A DNA stretch of 64,000 nt from Candidatus Nanopelagicales bacterium. Its GTDB lineage: Bacteria > Actinomycetota > Actinomycetes > S36-B12. The notes under the pieces were generated by a model. That model was not told the DNA's origin and made no database searches. It was given only the letters and a program-made list of their open reading frames with translations. The DNA lies in NCBI GenBank assembly GCA_040398845.1, contig JBBATH010000009.1:9199-73198 (forward strand), read 5' to 3'. This document shows, one piece after another, positions 8,916-18,972 of the stretch. The number at the start of each line of letters is the position of its first letter. The stretch's first letter is position 1. Made by a program: the position numbers and the translations under genes.

Positions 8916-9685
8916 CCCATCGGGAGGTGGTCCGTCATCAGGATGCCCGAACCCTTGCCCTATCGGTGGCAGAGATGCTCACGTCACGTATCGTCGAGCG
9001 GCAGGCTGACATGGGTTTCGCTCGAATCGTTCTCACCGGCGGCGGAATCGGAACAGCGGTTCTCGCCGCCGTCCGTGAGACCGGCCGCGATAACGTCGAT
9101 TGGGCTCGAGTCGAATTCTGGTGGGGCGACGAGCGGTATCTCCCCTCCGGAGATCCAAATCGAAACGATACCGCTGCTCGAGCAGCCCTCCTTGATCATG
9201 TCGGTGTCGACCAGCAGCATGTTCATTCGATTGAGGGTCCTGACCTCATGGCGAGCCCGGAGCAAGCCGCGGAGCACTACGCCGATCTCCTCAACGCGCA
9301 TGCCGCGGCAGCGGACCACCGTGATGTTCCTCCCTTCGATGTGGTGCTGCTCGGCGTTGGCCCTGACGGACATGTGGCGAGTCTGTTCCCTCAGCAAACA
9401 TCGCTGCGTGTGACTGATCGATCAACCGCCGCCGTGCACGGTTCGCCGAAGCCTCCGCCAACCCGGGTCACCCTCACCTTTCCAGCCATCAATGCGGCGA
9501 GCGAGGTTTGGGTTCTCGCGAGCGGGACCGAAAAGGCGGAAGCGGTGCGCCTTGCACTAGAGCCAGCGACAGACCCACGTCAGGTGCCTGCGGCTGGGGT
9601 CTCGGGTCGCGACCGCACCCTCTTCCTCATCGATGAGGAAGCAGCAGCGGAGCTACCGCTTGATCTCAGGCAACCGATGTCCTGA
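8912..9685 (+). CDS. pgl: 6-phosphogluconolactonase
   Basis: 257 aa, with LTGGGIG, WWGDERYLP and LLGVGPDGHVASLFP motifs. GTGA overlap with opcA. Confidence 0.93.
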   Translation: MTHREVVRHQDARTLALSVAEMLTSRIVERQADMGFARIVLTGGGIGTAVLAAVRETGRDNVDWARVEFWWGDERYLPSGDPNRNDTAARAALLDHVGVDQQHVHSIEGPDLMASPEQAAEHYADLLNAHAAAADHRDVPPFDVVLLGVGPDGHVASLFPQQTSLRVTDRSTAAVHGSPKPPPTRVTLTFPAINAASEVWVLASGTEKAEAVRLALEPATDPRQVPAAGVSGRDRTLFLIDEEAAAELPLDLRQPMS

Positions 9686-10419: not shown

Positions 10420-11517
10420 TTGACGTCAACCCTTTCGGAGGAACCCTTGGACGCTTCGGCTCCAGCGCTCAGCGTGCGGGACGTTACGAAGACATTCCAA
10501 ACGCCAGAGGGTGGCCAGATCCACGCTCTCGATTCAGTGAGTCTGGACATCGCTGACGGATCCTTCATGGTGCTCCTAGGTCCCTCCGGCTGCGGCAAAA
10601 CCACCCTGCTGCGCTGCATAGCCGGCCTCGAGTCCCCGGACTCCGGACGGATTGACCTTCGGGGGCAACGCATCGACGACATGCCCGTTTGGCGTCGGCG
10701 GGTGAACACGGTCTTTCAGTCATACGCCCTGTTCCCCCATATGACCGTGGCCCAGAACATCGCCTTTGGCCTGCAGATGGACAAGGTGCCGGGCGACATC
10801 ATTAAGCGCAAGGTCAACGAATCCCTCGACATGGTGCACCTGTCCGGCCTTGGCTCGCGTAAACCCTCTCAGCTCTCAGGCGGTCAGCAACAGCGAGTGG
10901 CTCTCGCGAGGGCCCTCGCTAAGGAACCAGAGGTCCTTCTTCTTGACGAGCCACTTTCCGCACTGGACCTTAAATTGCGCCGTGGCATGCAGTCAGAGCT
11001 CAAGCGTCTCCAGCGCGAGACGTCGATCACCTTCGTCCTTGTCACCCATGATCAAGACGAGGCGATGGCGATGGGCGACCAGGTTGCCGTGTTCAACACG
11101 GGCCGGATCGTGCAGGTCGGCGAGCCTCGCGGGGTATATCTACGCCCATGCAGCCGTTTCGTTGCCGACTTCATCGGTGAGGCAAATGTCCTCACCGGTG
11201 CCCTCGATACCTACGGTCTGGTCATTGAGTCCGTGGGCTTTGTTCCACGCGACCGGTTGGTGCCTGACACACAGGCCGCCCTCGGCCAGGTTCACGTAGC
11301 CGTGCGGCCGGAGAACGTCTCACTCCAGATCGATCCAGTTGGGTCGGCCAAGGTCACAGATGTGTCGTACGTCGGTGGCGATATGAGGGTCGAGGCGCTT
11401 GCCGCGACGGCAAGCATCGTCTCTCGGGTGCCATCGCAAGGTGTCCAGCCACCGCGTATTGGCGACCTCGTCAGCGTCAGTTTCACCGAGGGTTCACTCA
11501 CCGTGGTGGCCGACTGA
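10420..11517 (+). CDS. potA: ABC transporter ATP-binding protein, PotA (spermidine/putrescine importer) type with C-terminal TOBE-like domain
   Basis: Walker A GPSGCGKTT, signature LSGGQQQRVALARAL, Walker B LLLDEPLSALD. A more likely start is TTG 10447, preceded by GGAGG at 10436-10440. Confidence 0.92.
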   Translation: MTSTLSEEPLDASAPALSVRDVTKTFQTPEGGQIHALDSVSLDIADGSFMVLLGPSGCGKTTLLRCIAGLESPDSGRIDLRGQRIDDMPVWRRRVNTVFQSYALFPHMTVAQNIAFGLQMDKVPGDIIKRKVNESLDMVHLSGLGSRKPSQLSGGQQQRVALARALAKEPEVLLLDEPLSALDLKLRRGMQSELKRLQRETSITFVLVTHDQDEAMAMGDQVAVFNTGRIVQVGEPRGVYLRPCSRFVADFIGEANVLTGALDTYGLVIESVGFVPRDRLVPDTQAALGQVHVAVRPENVSLQIDPVGSAKVTDVSYVGGDMRVEALAATASIVSRVPSQGVQPPRIGDLVSVSFTEGSLTVVAD

Positions 11518-12461
11518 TGAAGGCACCGTGGTCCCCCACGGCTCGGCAGCGACATCAAGCCGGGCAGGGTTCCTGGTGGAGCGGACTTCCCGGCGTCGTG
11601 TACCTCATCGCGCTGGTGTTCCTTCCCCTTGTCATCATTTTCATCTACTCCTTCCTCAGTCGTGCGAAACTCGGAGTCGGGGTCAAGTGGGAGTTCAGCC
11701 TCACGCCGTACACCGAATTGCTGTACAGCGAGTCCCTCTCAGGAGGCCGGTCCTTTGACCCGACCTACCTCCAAATCATCGCGAACTCCTTCTGGTACGC
11801 AATCATCACGAGCGCCGTCTGCCTCGTTCTCTCAATCCCGATTGCGCTGTGGCTCGCGACCCGCCCGCCCGAGCGCCGAACCGCCCTTGTCTTCGCCGTA
11901 ACGATCCCCTTCTGGACGAGCCTGCTCATCCGCACCTACTCGTTCATCATCATCCTGAACGACAACGGACCGATCAACGGACTCCTCAAGGGCATTGGCA
12001 TCATTGACGAGCCCATCGCGATGCTGTACACCCCGTTCGCCACAGTCGTCGGGCTCGTCTACACGTTCCTTCCGTTCATGATCCTGCCGATCTACGCCAG
12101 TGCAGAACGATTCGACTTCCGCTTGGCCGAAGCCGCCTACGACCTCGGCGCAGCAAAGTGGACCGTCCTGCGCCGCGTCGTTCTCCCGAGCATCAGACCC
12201 GGGATCATCGCCGGTATGGTCCTTGTCTTCATCCCCGCGCTCGGCTCGTACCTCGCTCCTGAACTCCTTGGCGGTGGCAAGACCTCGATGATCGCCAACG
12301 TCATCGCGGCCCAGTTCGGAGCCTCCCGCAACTGGCCATTCGGTGCAGCCCTTTCCGTGCTCCTCCTCGTCATCACCCTGCTTGTGCTCATCACCTTTGC
12401 CGTCGTTGCAAAGCGCGCGAGTCGGGCAGCTGGCCGAGGTGGATGGGAAGCCCTCATATGA
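11517..12461 (+). CDS. potB: ABC transporter permease, PotB type
   Basis: Six-TM BPD-transport protein with an EAA-like loop (AEAAYDLGAAKWTVLRRVVLP). TGATG junction with potA. Confidence 0.9.
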   Translation: MKAPWSPTARQRHQAGQGSWWSGLPGVVYLIALVFLPLVIIFIYSFLSRAKLGVGVKWEFSLTPYTELLYSESLSGGRSFDPTYLQIIANSFWYAIITSAVCLVLSIPIALWLATRPPERRTALVFAVTIPFWTSLLIRTYSFIIILNDNGPINGLLKGIGIIDEPIAMLYTPFATVVGLVYTFLPFMILPIYASAERFDFRLAEAAYDLGAAKWTVLRRVVLPSIRPGIIAGMVLVFIPALGSYLAPELLGGGKTSMIANVIAAQFGASRNWPFGAALSVLLLVITLLVLITFAVVAKRASRAAGRGGWEALI

Positions 12462-13285
12462 CGACAGACAGCAAGCGGACTAGGGGCCGTAGAGGAGGAG
12501 GCGTCGGCCTCGGACTGCGGGACTTCCCGACCTTCAAGGCCGTCTCCTACCTCGTGTTCGTGTTCCTGTATCTCCCATTGATTTTCGTCGTCGCATACTC
12601 GTTCAACTCGAACCGAGTCGTGAGCGTGTGGCGCGGATTTACCTTCTCCTGGTATTCAGAGGTGCTCGGCAACGACGACATCCAGCGTGCGCTCTTCAAC
12701 TCGCTGAGAATCGGCGTCGTCGCCACCATTGTCTCCGTGGTGCTCGCCACTGGCCTCGCGATCGGCTTGCTCACGATGGCTCGGGCCGGTCGAACCTTCG
12801 CATGGACACTTATCGGCGCGCCACTCATCATCCCCGAGATCGTGTTCGCCATCGGCACGCTCGCCCTATTTGTCCAAAGTCGCATACCGCTCGGGGTCAA
12901 CGCCATCACCCTGGCCCACATCGCTTTCTGCGTTCCGTTCGCACTCCTCCCCATCAGAGCCCGGCTCCGCGGCGTCGACCCTGCCGTCTACGAGGCAGCC
13001 GCGGATCTCGGCGCAGGCGAGTTCACGATCTTCCGGCGCATGACGTTGCCGCTCCTCGCACCGGGCATCATTGCCGGTGCCCTCCTCGCCTTCATCATCA
13101 GCCTCGACGACTTCATCGTGTCGTACTTCCTCGCCGGCCCCGGCGGTACCACCCTGCCCGTCTACATCTTCGGGATGATCCGCAACGCCGTTACCCCCGG
13201 GGTCAATGCACTGTCCACCCTCATGCTCATCGCGAGCATCCTCATTGTTTCACTGTCCTATCTGTTGGCCCGAAAAAGGAGATGA
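12443..13285 (+). CDS. potC: ABC transporter permease, PotC type
   Basis: EAA loop YEAAADLGAGEFTIFRRMTLP. An alternative start at ATG 12458 forms an ATGA overlap with the potB stop. Confidence 0.9.
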   Translation: MGSPHMTTDSKRTRGRRGGGVGLGLRDFPTFKAVSYLVFVFLYLPLIFVVAYSFNSNRVVSVWRGFTFSWYSEVLGNDDIQRALFNSLRIGVVATIVSVVLATGLAIGLLTMARAGRTFAWTLIGAPLIIPEIVFAIGTLALFVQSRIPLGVNAITLAHIAFCVPFALLPIRARLRGVDPAVYEAAADLGAGEFTIFRRMTLPLLAPGIIAGALLAFIISLDDFIVSYFLAGPGGTTLPVYIFGMIRNAVTPGVNALSTLMLIASILIVSLSYLLARKRR

Positions 13286-13288
13286 GAA

Positions 13289-14443
13289 ATGATCAAAAAG
13301 AAGACACGACGCGGATTCGCCGCAGCGGTCGCGCTCAGCGCCGCCAGCGTCATGATCCTGGCCGGATGCGGAGGAGAGGCCACCCCGGCCGGTGCCGGCG
13401 CGACCGAGACCGCTGCACCGGCAGCAAGTGAGGCGGCTACGTCAGCTCCCGCTTCTGACTTCCCGACCGCAAACGGAGGTGAACTGAACCTCTACAACTG
13501 GACTGACTACATCTCACCTGAGGTGCTCAAGCGCTTCGAGACCGAGACAGGCATCAAGGTCAACCTCGACAACTTCGACTCAAACGAGACCCTGCTTGCC
13601 AAGCTCCAGGCCGGTGGCGCCAACTACGACGTCATCGTCCCGAGTGACTACATGGTCGCCCAGATGATCGAACTCGGCTTGCTCGAGCAGGTGAATCCCG
13701 CGTCATTCCCCAATGGTCAGAACATCAAGCCAGCGTTCCTTGACGTCTACTTCGATCAGGGACGCGGGTACACGGCGCCGTACATGTACGGCACCACGGG
13801 CATCGCCTACGACCCGAGCAAGACCGGCGGGCCAGTCACGAGTTGGGCAGACTTCTTCTCACCCGACAGCCCTGCCACTGGAAAGATCGGCACCCTCAAC
13901 GATCAGGTCGAGGTCATCCACGCGGCCCTGCGTGCGGTCGGCTCCCAGCCCTGCTCAATCGATAAGGCCGACTATGTCAAGGTCGAGAGCCTGCTCGCGG
14001 GCTGGAAGCCAGGCGTTGCAGTCATCAACTCAGACGGAGTCATCGGTCGCATGGCCAGCGGCGAACAGTCAATGCACATGATGTGGAACGGTGCCTTCCA
14101 CCGCGCCAAGGCCGACAACGCTGGACTCGAATACGCGTTCCCGTCCGAGGGTCTCAACCTCTGGCAGGACAACTTCGCGGTGCCGGTAGGAGCCCAGAAC
14201 GTCGACAACGCGAAGATCTTCATCAACTGGATGATGGATCCCGCAAACATCGGCGAGGCAACCAACTTCGTCGGCTACGACAACGGCATCACGGGTTCGG
14301 ACGCTTTCATGGATGCGGATATCGCCGGTGACCCAGCCGTCGTCATGTCGGCGGAAAACGCCGCACTTGCGAAGCCGACCCCGGGTTGCTCCGTTGAGGC
14401 CATCGACCTGTACGACCAGGTCTGGACCACCTTCAAGAAGTAG
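13289..14443 (+). CDS. potD: extracellular solute-binding lipoprotein, PotD/PotF family
   Basis: Signal peptide with lipobox LAGCGG. NLYNWTDYI is the start typical of PotD/PotF proteins. RBS AAAGGAG lies upstream. Confidence 0.88.
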   Translation: MIKKKTRRGFAAAVALSAASVMILAGCGGEATPAGAGATETAAPAASEAATSAPASDFPTANGGELNLYNWTDYISPEVLKRFETETGIKVNLDNFDSNETLLAKLQAGGANYDVIVPSDYMVAQMIELGLLEQVNPASFPNGQNIKPAFLDVYFDQGRGYTAPYMYGTTGIAYDPSKTGGPVTSWADFFSPDSPATGKIGTLNDQVEVIHAALRAVGSQPCSIDKADYVKVESLLAGWKPGVAVINSDGVIGRMASGEQSMHMMWNGAFHRAKADNAGLEYAFPSEGLNLWQDNFAVPVGAQNVDNAKIFINWMMDPANIGEATNFVGYDNGITGSDAFMDADIAGDPAVVMSAENAALAKPTPGCSVEAIDLYDQVWTTFKK

Positions 14444-14565
14444 TCCATTCACTGAGCTCACCCGGCTCGGGTGGCGCCGCGGCTCAATCGCGATGCCACC
14501 CGAGCGCGGGGGAAACGACATCATCACGACAACCATCGGCATGTTGCCAACAAGATCGGAGCACT

Positions 14566-16203
14566 GTGAGCACGCCCAGCCTTGGAAAGGTCACCCGCAT
14601 CGAGAACGCCGTCGTCTGGACAGGTCGGCAGATCCCCGGCACCGCTGACTACGCAGTCACCGATGCCATCGCCTTTGTGGGCGACAGTGTCCTCGCGCTC
14701 GGCCAAGCGGCACGCTCGATGGCGGCCGACCACATCATCGATGCGCAGGGCGGATTCATCTGCCACGCCTTCGGCGACGGCCATGTGCACTCAATCTTTG
14801 GTGGCCTCGAACAGCAGTTCGCGCCGGTTCGTGGCCATGAGAATCCGCAGGGAATCGCGAGGGCCGTCGGCGAGTGGGCTCGCGCACATCCCGAGGTCCC
14901 ATGGATCAGGGGTGAGGGCTTCGACCACACGCTGGCGCCCAGCGGCATCTTCCACGCCACCTGGCTCGATGCAGAGGTTCCCGACCGTCCCGTCGTGCTT
15001 CGGGCCACCGACTACCACACCGTTTGGGTGAACAGCACCGCCCTGCGGCTCGCAGGCTACGCGCGCGGAGTTGCACAGCCGCACGACGGGGAAATAGTTT
15101 GCGACGAGGTCGGCGACCCGACGGGCACCCTGCGCGAGTGGGGTGCGTGGCGTCCGGTCTACGACCTCATGCCCGAGGTACCCCTCGACATGCGGATGGC
15201 CGCCATCGAGCACGCTGCTCGCTCATTCGCAGCGTCAGGCCTCGCTTGGGTTCAGGATGCCTGGGTTGAGCGCGCCGATGTCAACACGTGGATCGAAGCT
15301 TCCACGCGTGGTCTCCTCACCTTCCGCGCCGATCTCGCACTCTGGGCCGATCCCAATTCCTGGCGTGATCAACTCGCCGGGTTCTCAGAGGACCGCGCAC
15401 GGATCGCCGCCCACGGCTCCCCCGCGCTGTCGGCCAACACGGTCAAATTCTTTGCCGATGGCGTCATCGAATCAGGTACGGGCGCGCTCCTTGAGCCCTA
15501 CTGCGACTGCCCCCACTCCAAGGGCATGCCGAACTGGGATCCCGCCGAACTTGCCCTAGCGGTCACGGCCATCGACGCTCTCGGATTCAATGCTCACATT
15601 CACGCAATCGGAGACGGCGCCGCGCGGATGGCACTCGATGGCATTGAGGCCGCGATCATCGCCAACGGTCCGCGGGATCGTCGCCCCGTCATTGTTCATC
15701 TCCAACTCGTCGATGATGCAGACCTGCCTAGATTCGCGGCCCTCGGTGTTGTCGCCAACTTCGAGCCCTACTGGGCGAAGTTTGACTCCTGGCAGACGGA
15801 GTTGACGGCCCCAAGACTTGGTGAATTGCGCACGAGCCGGCAATACCTCATGAAGAGTCTCGTGGATTCGGGCGCGACCGTCTCGTTTGGCAGCGATTGG
15901 CCGGTGACCACCTATGCTCCGCTGGCCGGCATCCAGGTCGCGGTCAACCGTCGTATGTCAGCCGATCCGGTTGATGAACCGTGGCTCCCAGGTGAGCGCG
16001 TGAACGTCGAGCAAGCCCTTGCTGCCTACACCTCAGGGGTCGGCTGGCAGACCGCCCAGCAAGACGAAGGGCTGCTCCGCCCTGGCGGACGTGCCGATGT
16101 GGTGTGGCTCGCGAAGGATCCTCGCACTGTCGATCCGATGGCAATCGAGGAGATCGCAATTCTGGGCACCTGGTCGTCCGGTGTGCGGGTCCACGGGGGT
16201 TAG
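14566..16203 (+). CDS. metal-dependent amidohydrolase, YtcJ / Amidohydro_3 family
   Basis: 545 aa, with an HxH metal motif (GDGHVHS), later His motifs (NAHIHAIGDGA, VIVHLQLV) and a C-terminal Asp (FGSDWPV). GTG start preceded by GGAG. Confidence 0.85.
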   Translation: MSTPSLGKVTRIENAVVWTGRQIPGTADYAVTDAIAFVGDSVLALGQAARSMAADHIIDAQGGFICHAFGDGHVHSIFGGLEQQFAPVRGHENPQGIARAVGEWARAHPEVPWIRGEGFDHTLAPSGIFHATWLDAEVPDRPVVLRATDYHTVWVNSTALRLAGYARGVAQPHDGEIVCDEVGDPTGTLREWGAWRPVYDLMPEVPLDMRMAAIEHAARSFAASGLAWVQDAWVERADVNTWIEASTRGLLTFRADLALWADPNSWRDQLAGFSEDRARIAAHGSPALSANTVKFFADGVIESGTGALLEPYCDCPHSKGMPNWDPAELALAVTAIDALGFNAHIHAIGDGAARMALDGIEAAIIANGPRDRRPVIVHLQLVDDADLPRFAALGVVANFEPYWAKFDSWQTELTAPRLGELRTSRQYLMKSLVDSGATVSFGSDWPVTTYAPLAGIQVAVNRRMSADPVDEPWLPGERVNVEQALAAYTSGVGWQTAQQDEGLLRPGGRADVVWLAKDPRTVDPMAIEEIAILGTWSSGVRVHGG

Positions 16204-16205
16204 GA

Positions 16206-16955
16206 ATGGCCCTCACCCCGGGCGAGGCTGATCGACTACTCCTGTACACCCAGGGGCTGCTCGCCCGTGAGCGGCACACCCGCGGACTGCTCCTCAACGT
16301 CCCCGAGTCGACTGCGATCATCGCGAATGCTGTCTGCGAGGCCGCTCGTGACGGCATGGATCTCGCGACTGCGCGCGAGACCGGACGTAGCGTTCTCAGC
16401 GCGACAGATGTGCTTCCGGGAGTTGTTGAGATCGTCACGGACGTCTCGGTTGAGGCAAGGTTCGACGACGGCACTCGACTCGTTGTCGTTCGGGACCCGT
16501 TCCGAACAGCACACGATGATGTACCGGCCGAGGTCGAATCGGCGGCCTTCCCATCGACCGGTGCCATTCGAATCGAAAACTGCGCCCTCACCTCGATCGG
16601 TCTCACTTCACACATCCACCTAGCCGAGGTCAACCCGCGACTTCGCCTCGACCGAGGGGTGGCCTATGGCCACCGACTCGCGATCCCGAGCGGCGACACC
16701 ATCTGGATAGCACCGGGCGAGACCATCGAGATTGGAATCCAGCCGATCGCTGGGGCAAGGGTCGTCATCGGTAACACCGGTGTCGTCGATGGCTCGCTTG
16801 ACGATCCCGAGTTGCGCCGAAGGGCGCTCGACATACTGCGCTCCTGCGGATACCTCGATACCGAAACGCAGTCGGCACCCGGATCCCAGGATGGTCTCCC
16901 CCCGGCGGATGATGCCGTGAGGGTGCTCATGGAACGTCGGCAGGTGAACCAGTGA
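16206..16955 (+). CDS. ureAB: urease-like fused gamma-beta subunit (UreAB)
   Basis: The N-terminus, MALTPGEADRLLLYTQGLLARERHTRGLLLNVPESTAII...EARFDDGTRLVVVRDP, aligns with UreA. The second half, SHIHLAEVNPRLRLDRGVAYGHRLAIPSGDTIWIAPGE, aligns with UreB. ATG 16206 lies 2 nt after the amidohydrolase stop. The track start at 16104 overlaps that gene. Confidence 0.88.
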   Translation: MALTPGEADRLLLYTQGLLARERHTRGLLLNVPESTAIIANAVCEAARDGMDLATARETGRSVLSATDVLPGVVEIVTDVSVEARFDDGTRLVVVRDPFRTAHDDVPAEVESAAFPSTGAIRIENCALTSIGLTSHIHLAEVNPRLRLDRGVAYGHRLAIPSGDTIWIAPGETIEIGIQPIAGARVVIGNTGVVDGSLDDPELRRRALDILRSCGYLDTETQSAPGSQDGLPPADDAVRVLMERRQVNQ

Positions 16956-18622
16956 CCGCTCACCCTCGACCATACGGGCCTATCCATGGTGACGTCGTCG
17001 CCCTTGGTGACACCGGGCTGCGGCTGAGGATTACTCGTCGGGTCGATGACGAGCATGACGAGTTTCGAGTCGGTTTCGCGAAGTCTGGCCGTGATGGCAT
17101 CGGACTTCGAGGGGCCACGACGGCCGACTCCTGCGACCTTGTCATCACGAATGTGATTGTCCTAGATCCGGTCGACGGGGTGCAGGTCGCGAGCATCGGG
17201 ATTCGCCAGGGCCGCATATGCGGGATTGGCCGCGCCGGAAATCCCGATACGAGCGATAGCGTCGATCTCATCGTTGGGACAAGCACCGTGGTTATCGATG
17301 GAGACGGACTCATTGCGACTCCTGGTGGCATCGATACCCATGTGCACAGCCTGAGTCCGCGTGTCTTCAATGCAGAAATTTCATCCGGAATCACGACGGT
17401 GATAGGCCAGGAGGCCGGACCGATGTGGGGGGTTGGACTCGGTTCACGCTGGGTCATTGACCGCGCACTGCGGGCAATGGACGCCTTCCCGGTGAACATT
17501 GGACTCCTCGGTCGTGGCTCATCCTCGAACCCGCAGTCAATCCGCGAATCACTCCACGCCCATGCCTGTGGTCTCAAAGTGCACGAGGACACCGGAGCGA
17601 CCCTGCACACCATTGACACCGCCCTTCGCATGGCGGATGAAGCCGATGTTCAGGTTGCGCTCCACACCGATGGCCTGAACGAAACCCTTTCGGTGGCCGA
17701 CACCATCGCTGTTGTCGGTGGCCGAGCAATCCACGCCTTTCACGTCGAAGGATGCGGAGGCGGCCATGCACCTGACGTCCTGCGTCTCGCCGGGCACGAC
17801 AACATCCTTACTTCCTCCACGAACCCGACGCTCCCCTACGGGCTGAATGCTGTGGAAGAGCATCTCGACATGATCATGTTCTGCCATGGAATGGATGCGG
17901 ACCGGGCGAGCGACGTGCGCATCGCACGAGCCCGAGTGCGCGCTGCGACTATGGCCGCCGAAAGTCGCCTGCATGACCGAGGGGTCATCCACATGACCTC
18001 CTCGGATGCTCAAGGTATGGGGCGAGCTGGTGAGACCTGGTGGCGGACCTTCGCTCTCGCCGGGGTGGTCGCCGCCGCCGATCCGGCGCGAGCCGAGCGC
18101 TCAGAGACTGACGACGACAACGAAAGAATCCTGCGCTATCTGGCGAAGATCACCGTCAATCCGGCAATCGTCCATGGCATCGTCCATGAGGTTGGCAGGC
18201 TCGCACCCGGGTTCCTCGCCGACATAGCCCTGTGGAGGCCCGAGATGTTCGCGGCCAAGCCCTGGCTCGTCCTTAAGGGCGGTTTCCCTGCGTGGGGGGT
18301 GACCGGAGACCCGAATGCGAGCATCGACTCCGCTCAGCCGCTCATCCTCGCCGAGCAGTTCGGCGCGATTGGTGCGGCGCCCAGCGACCTTTCATTCCTG
18401 ATTTCCAATGTCGAAGCGATGGCACACGGACATGCTCCAATACCGCGACGAGTCGTCGCGACTTCAGGCTGCCGGACTGTCCGTTCCCGCGACCTTGTCC
18501 GGCACAGTCCACCTGGCGAGGTGCGGGTATCCCCTCAGGGGGACGAGGTCACGTGGAACGGCGAAGCCCTCACCCTTGATCCAGTCCGACACGTGCCGCT
18601 CTCGCGCCTGCACTTCTGGTAG
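16952..18622 (+). CDS. ureC: urease-like alpha (catalytic) subunit
   Basis: 556 aa, with GGIDTHVH, GLKVHEDTG, VALHTDGLNE, HAFHVEGCGGGHAPD, STNPTLPY, EEHLDMIMFCHGMD and TSSDAQGMGRAGE. Collinear with canonical UreC. GTGA overlap with ureAB. Confidence 0.9.
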   Translation: MTAHPRPYGPIHGDVVALGDTGLRLRITRRVDDEHDEFRVGFAKSGRDGIGLRGATTADSCDLVITNVIVLDPVDGVQVASIGIRQGRICGIGRAGNPDTSDSVDLIVGTSTVVIDGDGLIATPGGIDTHVHSLSPRVFNAEISSGITTVIGQEAGPMWGVGLGSRWVIDRALRAMDAFPVNIGLLGRGSSSNPQSIRESLHAHACGLKVHEDTGATLHTIDTALRMADEADVQVALHTDGLNETLSVADTIAVVGGRAIHAFHVEGCGGGHAPDVLRLAGHDNILTSSTNPTLPYGLNAVEEHLDMIMFCHGMDADRASDVRIARARVRAATMAAESRLHDRGVIHMTSSDAQGMGRAGETWWRTFALAGVVAAADPARAERSETDDDNERILRYLAKITVNPAIVHGIVHEVGRLAPGFLADIALWRPEMFAAKPWLVLKGGFPAWGVTGDPNASIDSAQPLILAEQFGAIGAAPSDLSFLISNVEAMAHGHAPIPRRVVATSGCRTVRSRDLVRHSPPGEVRVSPQGDEVTWNGEALTLDPVRHVPLSRLHFW

Positions 18623-18642: not shown

Positions 18643-18972
18643 TCAGAAGCGGATCTTCTCCAGAGCCTCAGCGAGGATGGCGGCGCCGTCCTCGTCCGAC
18701 CGGCGTTCCTTCACGTAGGCGAGATGGGTCTTGTAGGGCTCCACCTTCTGGGGTGAGGGGGGATTGGCCTGATCAGGTCCAGAGGGCAGTCCGCACCGCG
18801 GGCAGTCCCACTCATCTGGGACGACAGCATCGGACGCGAAACTTGGCTTGGACTCGTGTCCCCTAGAGCACCAATATGAGACCCAGATACGGGGGGCGGC
18901 GTCGCCGCGCTCCGCCTCCCCCATCGGCCCAGCCCCAACACGGCTGCCACGAATGGCACTGCCTCCGGCCAT
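18643..18972 (-). CDS. rbpA: RNA polymerase-binding protein RbpA
   Basis: 109 aa, with IRGSRVG at the N-terminus, a Zn-ribbon-like region (WCSRGHE...CPRCG) and the C-terminal sigma-interaction helix YKTHLAYVKERRSDEDG. This family is Actinobacteria-specific. Confidence 0.92.
   Translation of the reverse strand: MAGGSAIRGSRVGAGPMGEAERGDAAPRIWVSYWCSRGHESKPSFASDAVVPDEWDCPRCGLPSGPDQANPPSPQKVEPYKTHLAYVKERRSDEDGAAILAEALEKIRF

Follow-up and report, generated by a model that had tools for sequence, protein, structure and literature searches.

Urease is a textbook metalloenzyme whose active site needs a dedicated chaperone relay for its assembly. The iron urease UreA2B2 of Helicobacter mustelae (3QGA) and UreABC of Bacillus subtilis are precedents for maturation without dedicated accessory proteins, and both are true ureases with a canonical pocket. 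In Streptomyces, genomes in which so-called 'ure(AB)C only' clusters occur also have a complete second urease cluster, which could act in trans. Here we describe a urease-like gene pair of the same layout, a fused ureAB followed by ureC, in a 64,000-nucleotide stretch of DNA from a freshwater Candidatus Nanopelagicales bacterium (positions 9,199 to 73,198 of contig JBBATH010000009.1, assembly GCA_040398845.1), which we call the window. The pair belongs to an actinobacterial clade that retains the complete urease metal site and has a modified substrate-contact region. As in most of its relatives, the maturation genes are missing from its genome. We tentatively propose that the enzyme may be a decarbamoylase of N-carbamoyl-amines rather than a urease.

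This kind of locus has already been recorded by gene order in Streptomyces, in 2008 (SCO5525-SCO5526 and a cluster of S. avermitilis; PMC2492869). The functional hypothesis put forward here is fairly surprising. Full-text literature searches found neither a characterised accessory-less actinobacterial urease homologue nor a urease-like N-carbamoylputrescine hydrolase.

Comparison with described ureases

Canonical Ni-ureases (K. aerogenes 2KAU/1FWJ, S. pasteurii 4UBP) share with the window enzyme the gamma, beta and alpha domains, the fold family, the catalytic residues and the metal ligands, including the carbamylated Lys. The window enzyme differs from them in overall sequence (about 45% identity), in a loop deletion, in the motifs HEDT and EGCGGG, in a flap that varies among its relatives and in an additional tail on the gamma-beta subunit. 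Unlike theirs, its genome has no UreD, UreE, UreF or UreG, and no urea transporter.

Although UreA2B2 of H. mustelae offers a precedent for unaided maturation, no specific kinship with it was observed. The window UreC aligns with UreB2 (3qga_C) at 463 bits, against 467–493 for the other ureases compared, among them K. aerogenes (492) and S. pasteurii (468). A UreA2B2-type placement, which had been considered in the first-pass annotation of the window (made from its letters alone), is therefore not supported.

The Streptomyces ure(AB)C-only clusters likewise consist of a fused ureAB and ureC with no adjacent accessory genes. In contrast to those genomes, the window genome has no second urease cluster. 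The neighbours are also different: relatives of the window pair in genomes of 7–10 Mb have an aguA-like gene downstream, whereas in the window a Pot-type importer and a YtcJ-type amidohydrolase gene lie upstream.

Active site and substrate pocket of UreC

Residues were mapped on a full-length alignment with K. aerogenes UreC (E 1e-146). This alignment confirmed that the full set of six metal ligands, already listed in the first-pass annotation, is kept: His134 and His136 (DTHVH), Lys217 (GLKVHED), His246 (ALHTD), His272 (HAFHVEG) and Asp360 (SSDAQ). The catalytic residues His219 and Asp221, the flap His320 (within the flap Cys-His) and the equivalent of Arg336 are also identical to those of K. 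aerogenes. Both the ligands and the catalytic residues are conserved throughout the clade described below.

The neighbouring positions are a different matter. Two substitutions noticed in the first-pass annotation, HEDWG to HEDTG and the flap CHH to CHG, are real, but the larger changes had been missed. In place of GGGTGPAAGTHATTCTPG, the glycine-rich stretch with the Ala167 loop, the window UreC has GQEAGPMWGVGLGS, and 4 residues are deleted. Furthermore, EGAGGG is changed to EGCGGG (Ala276 to Cys), ALHSDT to ALHTDG and SDSQAM to SDAQGM (Ala363 to Gly). The canonical pocket, with its ATTxTPG Ala167 loop, HEDW, EGAGGG and flap CHH, is thus not found in the window UreC.

In established urease structures, the carbonyls of Ala167 and Ala363, together with Gly277, contact the urea nitrogens. 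Because the region around Ala167, Ala363 and position 276 makes these contacts in known ureases, changes there are pocket changes, and homology suggests that the UreC substitutions alter the substrate pocket. The pocket has probably been rebuilt and is probably wider. One may even speculate that, with one new residue that is acidic and another that is aromatic, it has gained features typical of polyamine binding.

The NCBI protein models agree with an enzyme that is urease-like and not an equivalog of urease. UreC reached 649 bits with the subfamily model NF009686 (cut-off 354), whose name is urease alpha, and only 558.8 bits with the urease-alpha equivalog TIGR01792 (cut-off 680). Similarly, UreAB scored 223 bits with the gamma/beta model NF009671, under its cut-off of 243.

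A distinct actinobacterial clade

In a sample of 151 genomes from the window's order, 51 carry a UreC of the same variant type, at 53–100% identity. The sequence signature of this variant is invariant or nearly so in 47 related loci and comprises QE.GP.WGVG with the deletion, HED followed by Thr, Met, Val or Leu (in the place of Trp222), H(T/S)DGLNE, H(V/I)EGCGGGH and SDA.GMGR. The loop has therefore not only lost 4 residues but also acquired a new invariant Gln-Glu and Trp. The replacements of Ala276 by Cys and of Ala363 by Gly extend across the clade, and the flap Cys and the second flap His are variable.

Such substitutions are not common in ordinary Ni-ureases, a possibility that the first-pass annotation had raised: all 17 of the canonical full-loop sequences that we aligned keep both HEDW and the long loop. 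In a maximum-likelihood tree the canonical sequences form one clade, and the short-loop homologues fall into several deep lineages, one of which holds the window UreC.

The fusion of the gamma and beta subunits, followed by a tail of some 50 residues, was borne out by the domain assignments (Table 1). Within the tail (approximately 16794–16955), a helix-like motif, LD.P...R..AL..L...GYL, is conserved across the clade and missing from canonical fused gamma-beta proteins. The window pair thus shows the features of the ure(AB)C-only clade together: a fused gamma-beta and an alpha subunit, no linked accessory genes, the shared motifs and the tail.

The clade reaches beyond the window's order. In a sample of 301 genomes from the class it was detected in about ten families outside that order. 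Among the carriers is genus g67, with genomes of 7–10 Mb, 71–73% G+C and enzymes that share 53–57% identity and the same motifs. From genome size and G+C we infer that these large, high-GC carriers are Streptomyces-like. Their features fit the Streptomyces ure(AB)C-only clusters.

Both genes of the pair are under strong purifying selection. The ratio of nonsynonymous to synonymous substitution rates relative to close relatives is 0.05–0.08 for ureC and 0.16–0.25 for ureAB, and about 0.04 for the YtcJ amidohydrolase. Every metal ligand is conserved across orders, over the same 53–100% range of identity. In the genomes G054 (C4:505109-506769), G126, G130, G021 and G057 the variant ureC is matched in two pieces, which may represent frameshifts, pseudogenes or assembly errors, and some lineages may be losing the gene. 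Automatic annotation (the protein atlas and cluster names) calls the variant only 'urease' or 'urease subunit alpha'.

Absence of maturation genes

The first-pass annotation had noted the lack of UreD, UreE, UreF and UreG in the 64 kb. This absence extends to the whole genome, which comprises 3.6 Mb in 58 contigs and is 97.5% complete. Throughout it, UreD yielded zero matches, UreE and UreF produced sub-threshold noise only, and the TIGR00101 search for UreG was empty at E <= 1e-5, the top match of the cobW family reaching 29 bits. There is a single UreC and no further urease homologue, so the enzyme is not the 'second' urease that had been suggested.

The same holds for most relatives, since both UreG and UreD are absent from 47 of the 51 carriers of the variant. 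In the order sample these two proteins are confined to six genomes, where they share a contig with a canonical UreC (42–46% identity); in one of the six, whose assembly is fragmented, they are on a different contig. G051 also has a partial UreG, located at the edge of a contig. In three or four genomes the variant UreC coexists with a full canonical urease and UreDFG.

The best explanation of these results is that the clade builds its binuclear metal centre without UreD, UreE, UreF and UreG, and the genome-wide absence of helpers supports the earlier suggestion of an accessory-independent urease homologue. The metal itself could be nickel. The genome encodes a NiCoT-type transporter and a Ni superoxide dismutase, which means that nickel is available to the cell. 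Gene content gives no case for or against nickel in this enzyme, and the proposal of a non-Ni centre found no support either way.

Several neighbouring genes were considered as substitutes for the missing helpers. In one sub-lineage a MeaB-type G3E GTPase, a member of the UreG superfamily, lies with a thiolase gene just upstream of ureAB (L051:6144-7103; L052:11212-12180), and an open reading frame of 197 residues without a family match sits between them and ureAB. We rejected MeaB as a general surrogate of UreG because it is limited to this sub-lineage and stands beside a thiolase. Four genes downstream of ureC in G132 were rejected as cryptic helpers, as they are lipoate and MOSC housekeeping genes.

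In a lineage with small genomes (1.4–1.8 Mb), a 547-residue ATPase resembling diol dehydratase reactivases (PF08841, PF18427) is encoded directly upstream of YtcJ-ureAB-ureC (L055:12070-13713, minus strand; also L054 and L057). An ATP-driven reactivase that adjoins a chaperone-less metalloenzyme may be a candidate maturation factor.

Operon structure

The urease-like pair is not an isolated urease but part of one operon with an importer and an amidohydrolase gene (Table 1). The Pfam families PF00547, PF00699, PF00449 and PF01979 are all matched by its products. The ATG of ureAB follows the stop codon TAG of the YtcJ amidohydrolase gene (16201–16203) after 2 nucleotides, an arrangement of translational coupling. 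ureAB and ureC, both intact, overlap in GTGA and are translationally coupled as well.

No terminator-like site above chance interrupts the run from the importer through the amidohydrolase gene to ureAB and ureC. The only sizeable gap in the operon is the 122-nucleotide spacer between the binding-protein and amidohydrolase genes (14444–14565), and this too has no terminator-like site above chance on the plus strand. Downstream, the convergent position of rbpA, 20 nucleotides past ureC, was confirmed as first annotated.

Table 1. Genes of the operon and its flanks, with positions in the window
Feature	Position	Strand	Assignment
TetR-like regulator, 211 residues	9697..10332	-	NCBIfam TetR, weak match (30 bits); no Pfam match
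PotA-like ATPase of ABC importer	10420-11517	+	ABC_tran + TOBE_2
Two permeases of ABC importer	11517-12461, 12443-13285	+	BPD_transp_1 each
Polyamine-type substrate-binding lipoprotein (PotD/PotF/SpuE-like)	13289..14443	+	SBP_bac_8
YtcJ/COG1574-type metal amidohydrolase, 545 residues	14566..16203	+	Amidohydro_3 PF07969, 276 bits, full length
ureAB, fused urease gamma-beta	16206..16955	+	Urease_gamma residues 1-98, Urease_beta 117-196, then 53-residue tail
ureC, urease-alpha-like catalytic subunit	16952..18622	+	Urease_alpha N-domain + Amidohydro_1
rbpA	18643-18972	-	Convergent with ureC

The operon is probably under the control of the TetR-like regulator, whose gene keeps its position, divergent from potA, in related loci at 52–90% identity. 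Among solved structures, the binding lipoprotein is best matched by proteins that bind polyamines, putrescine and spermidine (E 3e-56 to 1e-41), and it scores under the PotD and PotF equivalog cut-offs. In the case of the YtcJ-type amidohydrolase, all solved relatives are uncharacterised hydrolases.

Key evidence on the function of the pair thus lies outside the two genes on which the first-pass annotation concentrated, namely in the coupled YtcJ amidohydrolase, in the Pot-type importer and in a link to agmatine deiminase that runs through the clade.

Gene neighbourhoods in related genomes

Two kinds of partner recur beside ureAB-ureC: the YtcJ amidohydrolase, usually accompanied by a Pot-type importer, and a gene of the agmatine deiminase family. 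The window represents the first kind, with a Pot importer and Amidohydro_3.

A YtcJ orthologue adjoins the pair in 21 of the 51 variant genomes. In the window's own family (f1) it lies directly upstream, and the importer is syntenic with the enzyme genes. The importer is rearranged in two other families. In the small-genome family f7, where YtcJ is also present, it is found downstream with a C45 hydrolase and a flavin adenine dinucleotide (FAD) oxidoreductase. In f48, which belongs to another order, YtcJ is convergent and the link between the Pot importer and Amidohydro_3 takes a different arrangement.

In the order sample, 18 genomes have a gene of the agmatine deiminase family no more than 7 kb from ureAB-ureC. 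This aguA-like gene is upstream and overlapping in G132, G074, G059 and G107, divergent in genus g26, and 2–6 kb away in genus g20. It is located directly downstream in the large-genome lineage (7–10 Mb) and in families f11, f20 and f54. The adjacent AguA is at equivalog level in f10 and f20 (553–561 bits; cut-off 381.8). That the genes are arranged in such different ways from order to order speaks for a functional link.

YtcJ orthologues were also observed in relatives without the urease-like pair, where they stand behind a gene similar to dimethylformamidase beta (L070:4552-9869; L068:3763-8785). At the first of these loci, an HDAC-type gene (acetylpolyamine-amidohydrolase-like) and a class-III aminotransferase gene are next door. 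These neighbours fit an enzyme that acts on N-acylated or N-carbamoylated amines.

Complementary distributions and nitrogen metabolism

In the order sample 52 genomes are positive for the AguA family, and 38 of them have the variant UreC. Instead of it, ten genomes, belonging to genus g25, have a gene similar to putrescine carbamoyltransferase (PTC) beside aguA. Both genes are present in one genome (G142) and neither in four; of these four, one genome is incomplete, one has a broken aguA and one gives a weak match.

The AguB equivalog cut-off was reached by no genome in the sampled order. A common CN-hydrolase scoring 245 bits was rejected as AguB, as it is present whether or not a genome has AguA and, in the window's genome, adjoins dihydropyrimidinase, which makes it a probable beta-ureidopropionase.

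Within genus g26 the gene sets differ. In G142, ptc, a permease gene, aguA and a carbamate kinase gene, which make up the full set, are divergent from ureAB-ureC (L072:514-7129). At the same place G110 and G146 have aguA and carbamate kinase only; in G110 the kinase, which is at equivalog level, follows aguA with no carbamoyltransferase (L064:10667-12787). Carbamate kinase might capture carbamate, the direct product of a urease-type reaction.

Thirteen genomes with the variant UreC lack AguA. In 12 of these, the window's genome included, YtcJ adjoins ureAB-ureC.

Only three genomes of the sample have the urea uptake protein UrtA, and the variant UreC is present in none of them; in two of the three, UrtA stands beside a canonical ureC. 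The window's genome has neither UrtA nor urea carboxylase. It does have a second Pot-type cluster (contig 14, 72000–88000; L066) that encodes an agmatinase equivalog (191 bits; cut-off 174) as well as an FAD oxidoreductase and an enzyme with the amidase signature, and dihydropyrimidinase and CN-hydrolase genes lie nearby. Together they form a second set for scavenging guanidino and ureido nitrogen.

Proposed function

Agmatine deiminase makes N-carbamoylputrescine, which is a mono-substituted urea. The reading that we prefer, tentatively and with somewhat less than even confidence, is that the window pair and its relatives encode a decarbamoylase that matures by itself and acts on N-carbamoyl-amines akin to N-carbamoylputrescine. 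Such an enzyme would attack the carbonyl group of a urea that bears an N-substituent; the likeliest candidate is N-carbamoylputrescine or one of its close analogues. The chemistry would be that of urease, with attack by the metal-bridging hydroxide and the flap His as general acid. The products would be the free amine (putrescine in the case of N-carbamoylputrescine) and carbamate, which would yield CO2 and NH3.

The adjacent enzyme of the agmatine deiminase family would be the source of the substrate in many relatives. As the window is without an agmatine deiminase, we propose YtcJ as the supplier there: the coupled amidohydrolase would make or unmask a ureido-amine from a compound imported by the Pot system.

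An N-carbamoyl-amine substrate would explain both the replacement of putrescine carbamoyltransferase and the coexistence with canonical ureases in three or four genomes. Hydrolysis of N-carbamoylputrescine is the most economical reading of the context. The same proposed step, removal of the carbamoyl group after agmatine deiminase, is carried out by AguB (a CN-hydrolase) and by PTC. The likeness is one of function only, as their fold and chemistry are unrelated to those of the urease-like enzyme; its distribution is complementary to that of PTC in AguA-positive genomes.

A broader proposition is more tentative still. It holds that the urease scaffold was repurposed in Actinobacteria as a third, fold-unrelated solution to the N-carbamoylputrescine step (or, more widely, as an N-carbamoyl-amine decarbamoylase), with a self-loading binuclear site that does without GTPase chaperones and with YtcJ as an unrecognised supplier of ureido-substrates in genomes that lack agmatine deiminase.

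Several observations weigh against the decarbamoylase. Every residue needed for urea hydrolysis is kept, so urea is possible as a substrate, and the assignment of another one is drawn from gene context. Most 'aguA' genes adjacent to the clade score 265–300 bits, under the AguA cut-off, which means that the substrate of their products may not be agmatine. The window's genome itself has no match to PF04371 and hence no agmatine deiminase, an enzyme present in 38 of the 51 relatives with the variant UreC. The YtcJ step is made less clear by YtcJ orthologues in relatives that lack the urease-like pair, where the neighbours are HDAC-type and dimethylformamidase-like genes.

Upstream of ureAB-ureC in G029, the aguA-like gene and a TetR gene are separated by an intact gene for a CN-hydrolase of about 260 residues (L049:5375-6181), and an NCS1 permease gene lies farther upstream. 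This CN-hydrolase could itself perform the decarbamoylation. The sampled genomes are related, and the independent events behind the distribution counts are far fewer than the counts themselves. Finally, an agmatinase-type ureohydrolase should release urea, and in a genome with neither UrtA nor urea carboxylase a plain urease would fill a metabolic gap.

Alternative explanations

The last point leads to the strongest alternative, which we regard as less likely: a true urease, acting on urea, whose metal centre (Ni or other) assembles by itself without UreDEFG and which recycles intracellular urea, for example from an agmatinase-type ureohydrolase. It agrees with the retention of all metal ligands and of His219, Asp221, His320 and Arg336, with the status of the enzyme as the sole urease homologue of its genome, and with the agmatinase equivalog in the second Pot-type cluster and the lack of urea carboxylase. 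The cell takes up and uses nickel, the NCBI subfamily model still says urease alpha, and B. subtilis UreABC and H. mustelae UreA2B2 are helper-free precedents.

However, the Ala167 contact loop is deleted or replaced and four more pocket positions are changed across the clade, which is never the case in the canonical clade, and the score stays under the urease-alpha equivalog cut-off. The coexistence with a full canonical urease and UreDFG argues for a different role. Moreover, UrtA is found in no carrier genome, and the neighbours are agmatine-deiminase-family or YtcJ/Pot genes, not urea-producing ureohydrolases. A non-urea substrate, which the first-pass annotation had suggested, is the best-supported reading.

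It is rather improbable that this substrate is some other small amide, ureide or guanidine, made by YtcJ from an imported polyamine conjugate, with the agmatine deiminase link reflecting a shared regulon and not consecutive steps. Candidates would be a different N-carbamoyl or N-amidino amine, guanidine, or a product of the formamide/acetamide type. The translational coupling to YtcJ points in this direction, as do the HDAC-type, dimethylformamidase-like and class-III aminotransferase genes beside YtcJ orthologues elsewhere, the mostly sub-equivalog scores of the aguA-like neighbours and the NCS1 permeases that flank some loci. On the other hand, the either/or pattern with putrescine carbamoyltransferase in AguA-positive genomes points to N-carbamoylputrescine, and in f10 and f20 it is an equivalog-level AguA that adjoins the pair.

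A last reading is that the protein is a relic, inactive or non-catalytic, or else an ordinary Ni-urease whose maturation depends in trans on chaperones that have escaped recognition, for instance other G3E GTPases. This reading would account for the lack of helper genes, for the MeaB-type GTPase two genes upstream of ureAB in some relatives and for the split gene in several others, but it is very improbable given the strong purifying selection, the conservation of every ligand across orders, the restriction of the MeaB neighbour to one sub-lineage (it is absent from the window) and the weakness of the genome's best cobW-family matches.

Implications

A large natural clade with the same metal site as urease and without its chaperones would allow a direct comparison that bears on why the relay is needed at all. 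If the substrate is indeed an N-carbamoyl-amine, the enzyme would represent a new catalytic use of the urease fold, and actinobacteria would have in it a missing enzyme for scavenging nitrogen from polyamines and agmatine.

The findings also concern the interpretation of metagenomes, where the presence of ureC is commonly taken to indicate urea use. Members of the clade abound in lake actinobacteria and occur in 7–10 Mb genomes that are putatively Streptomyces-like, and automatic annotation labels them urease, so inferences based on ureC may be wrong. If the urease scaffold has been repurposed as proposed, the 'ureC' found in abundant freshwater actinobacteria and in the ure(AB)C-only clusters of Streptomyces would be no report of urea use, and many genes labelled 'urease' may be misnamed.

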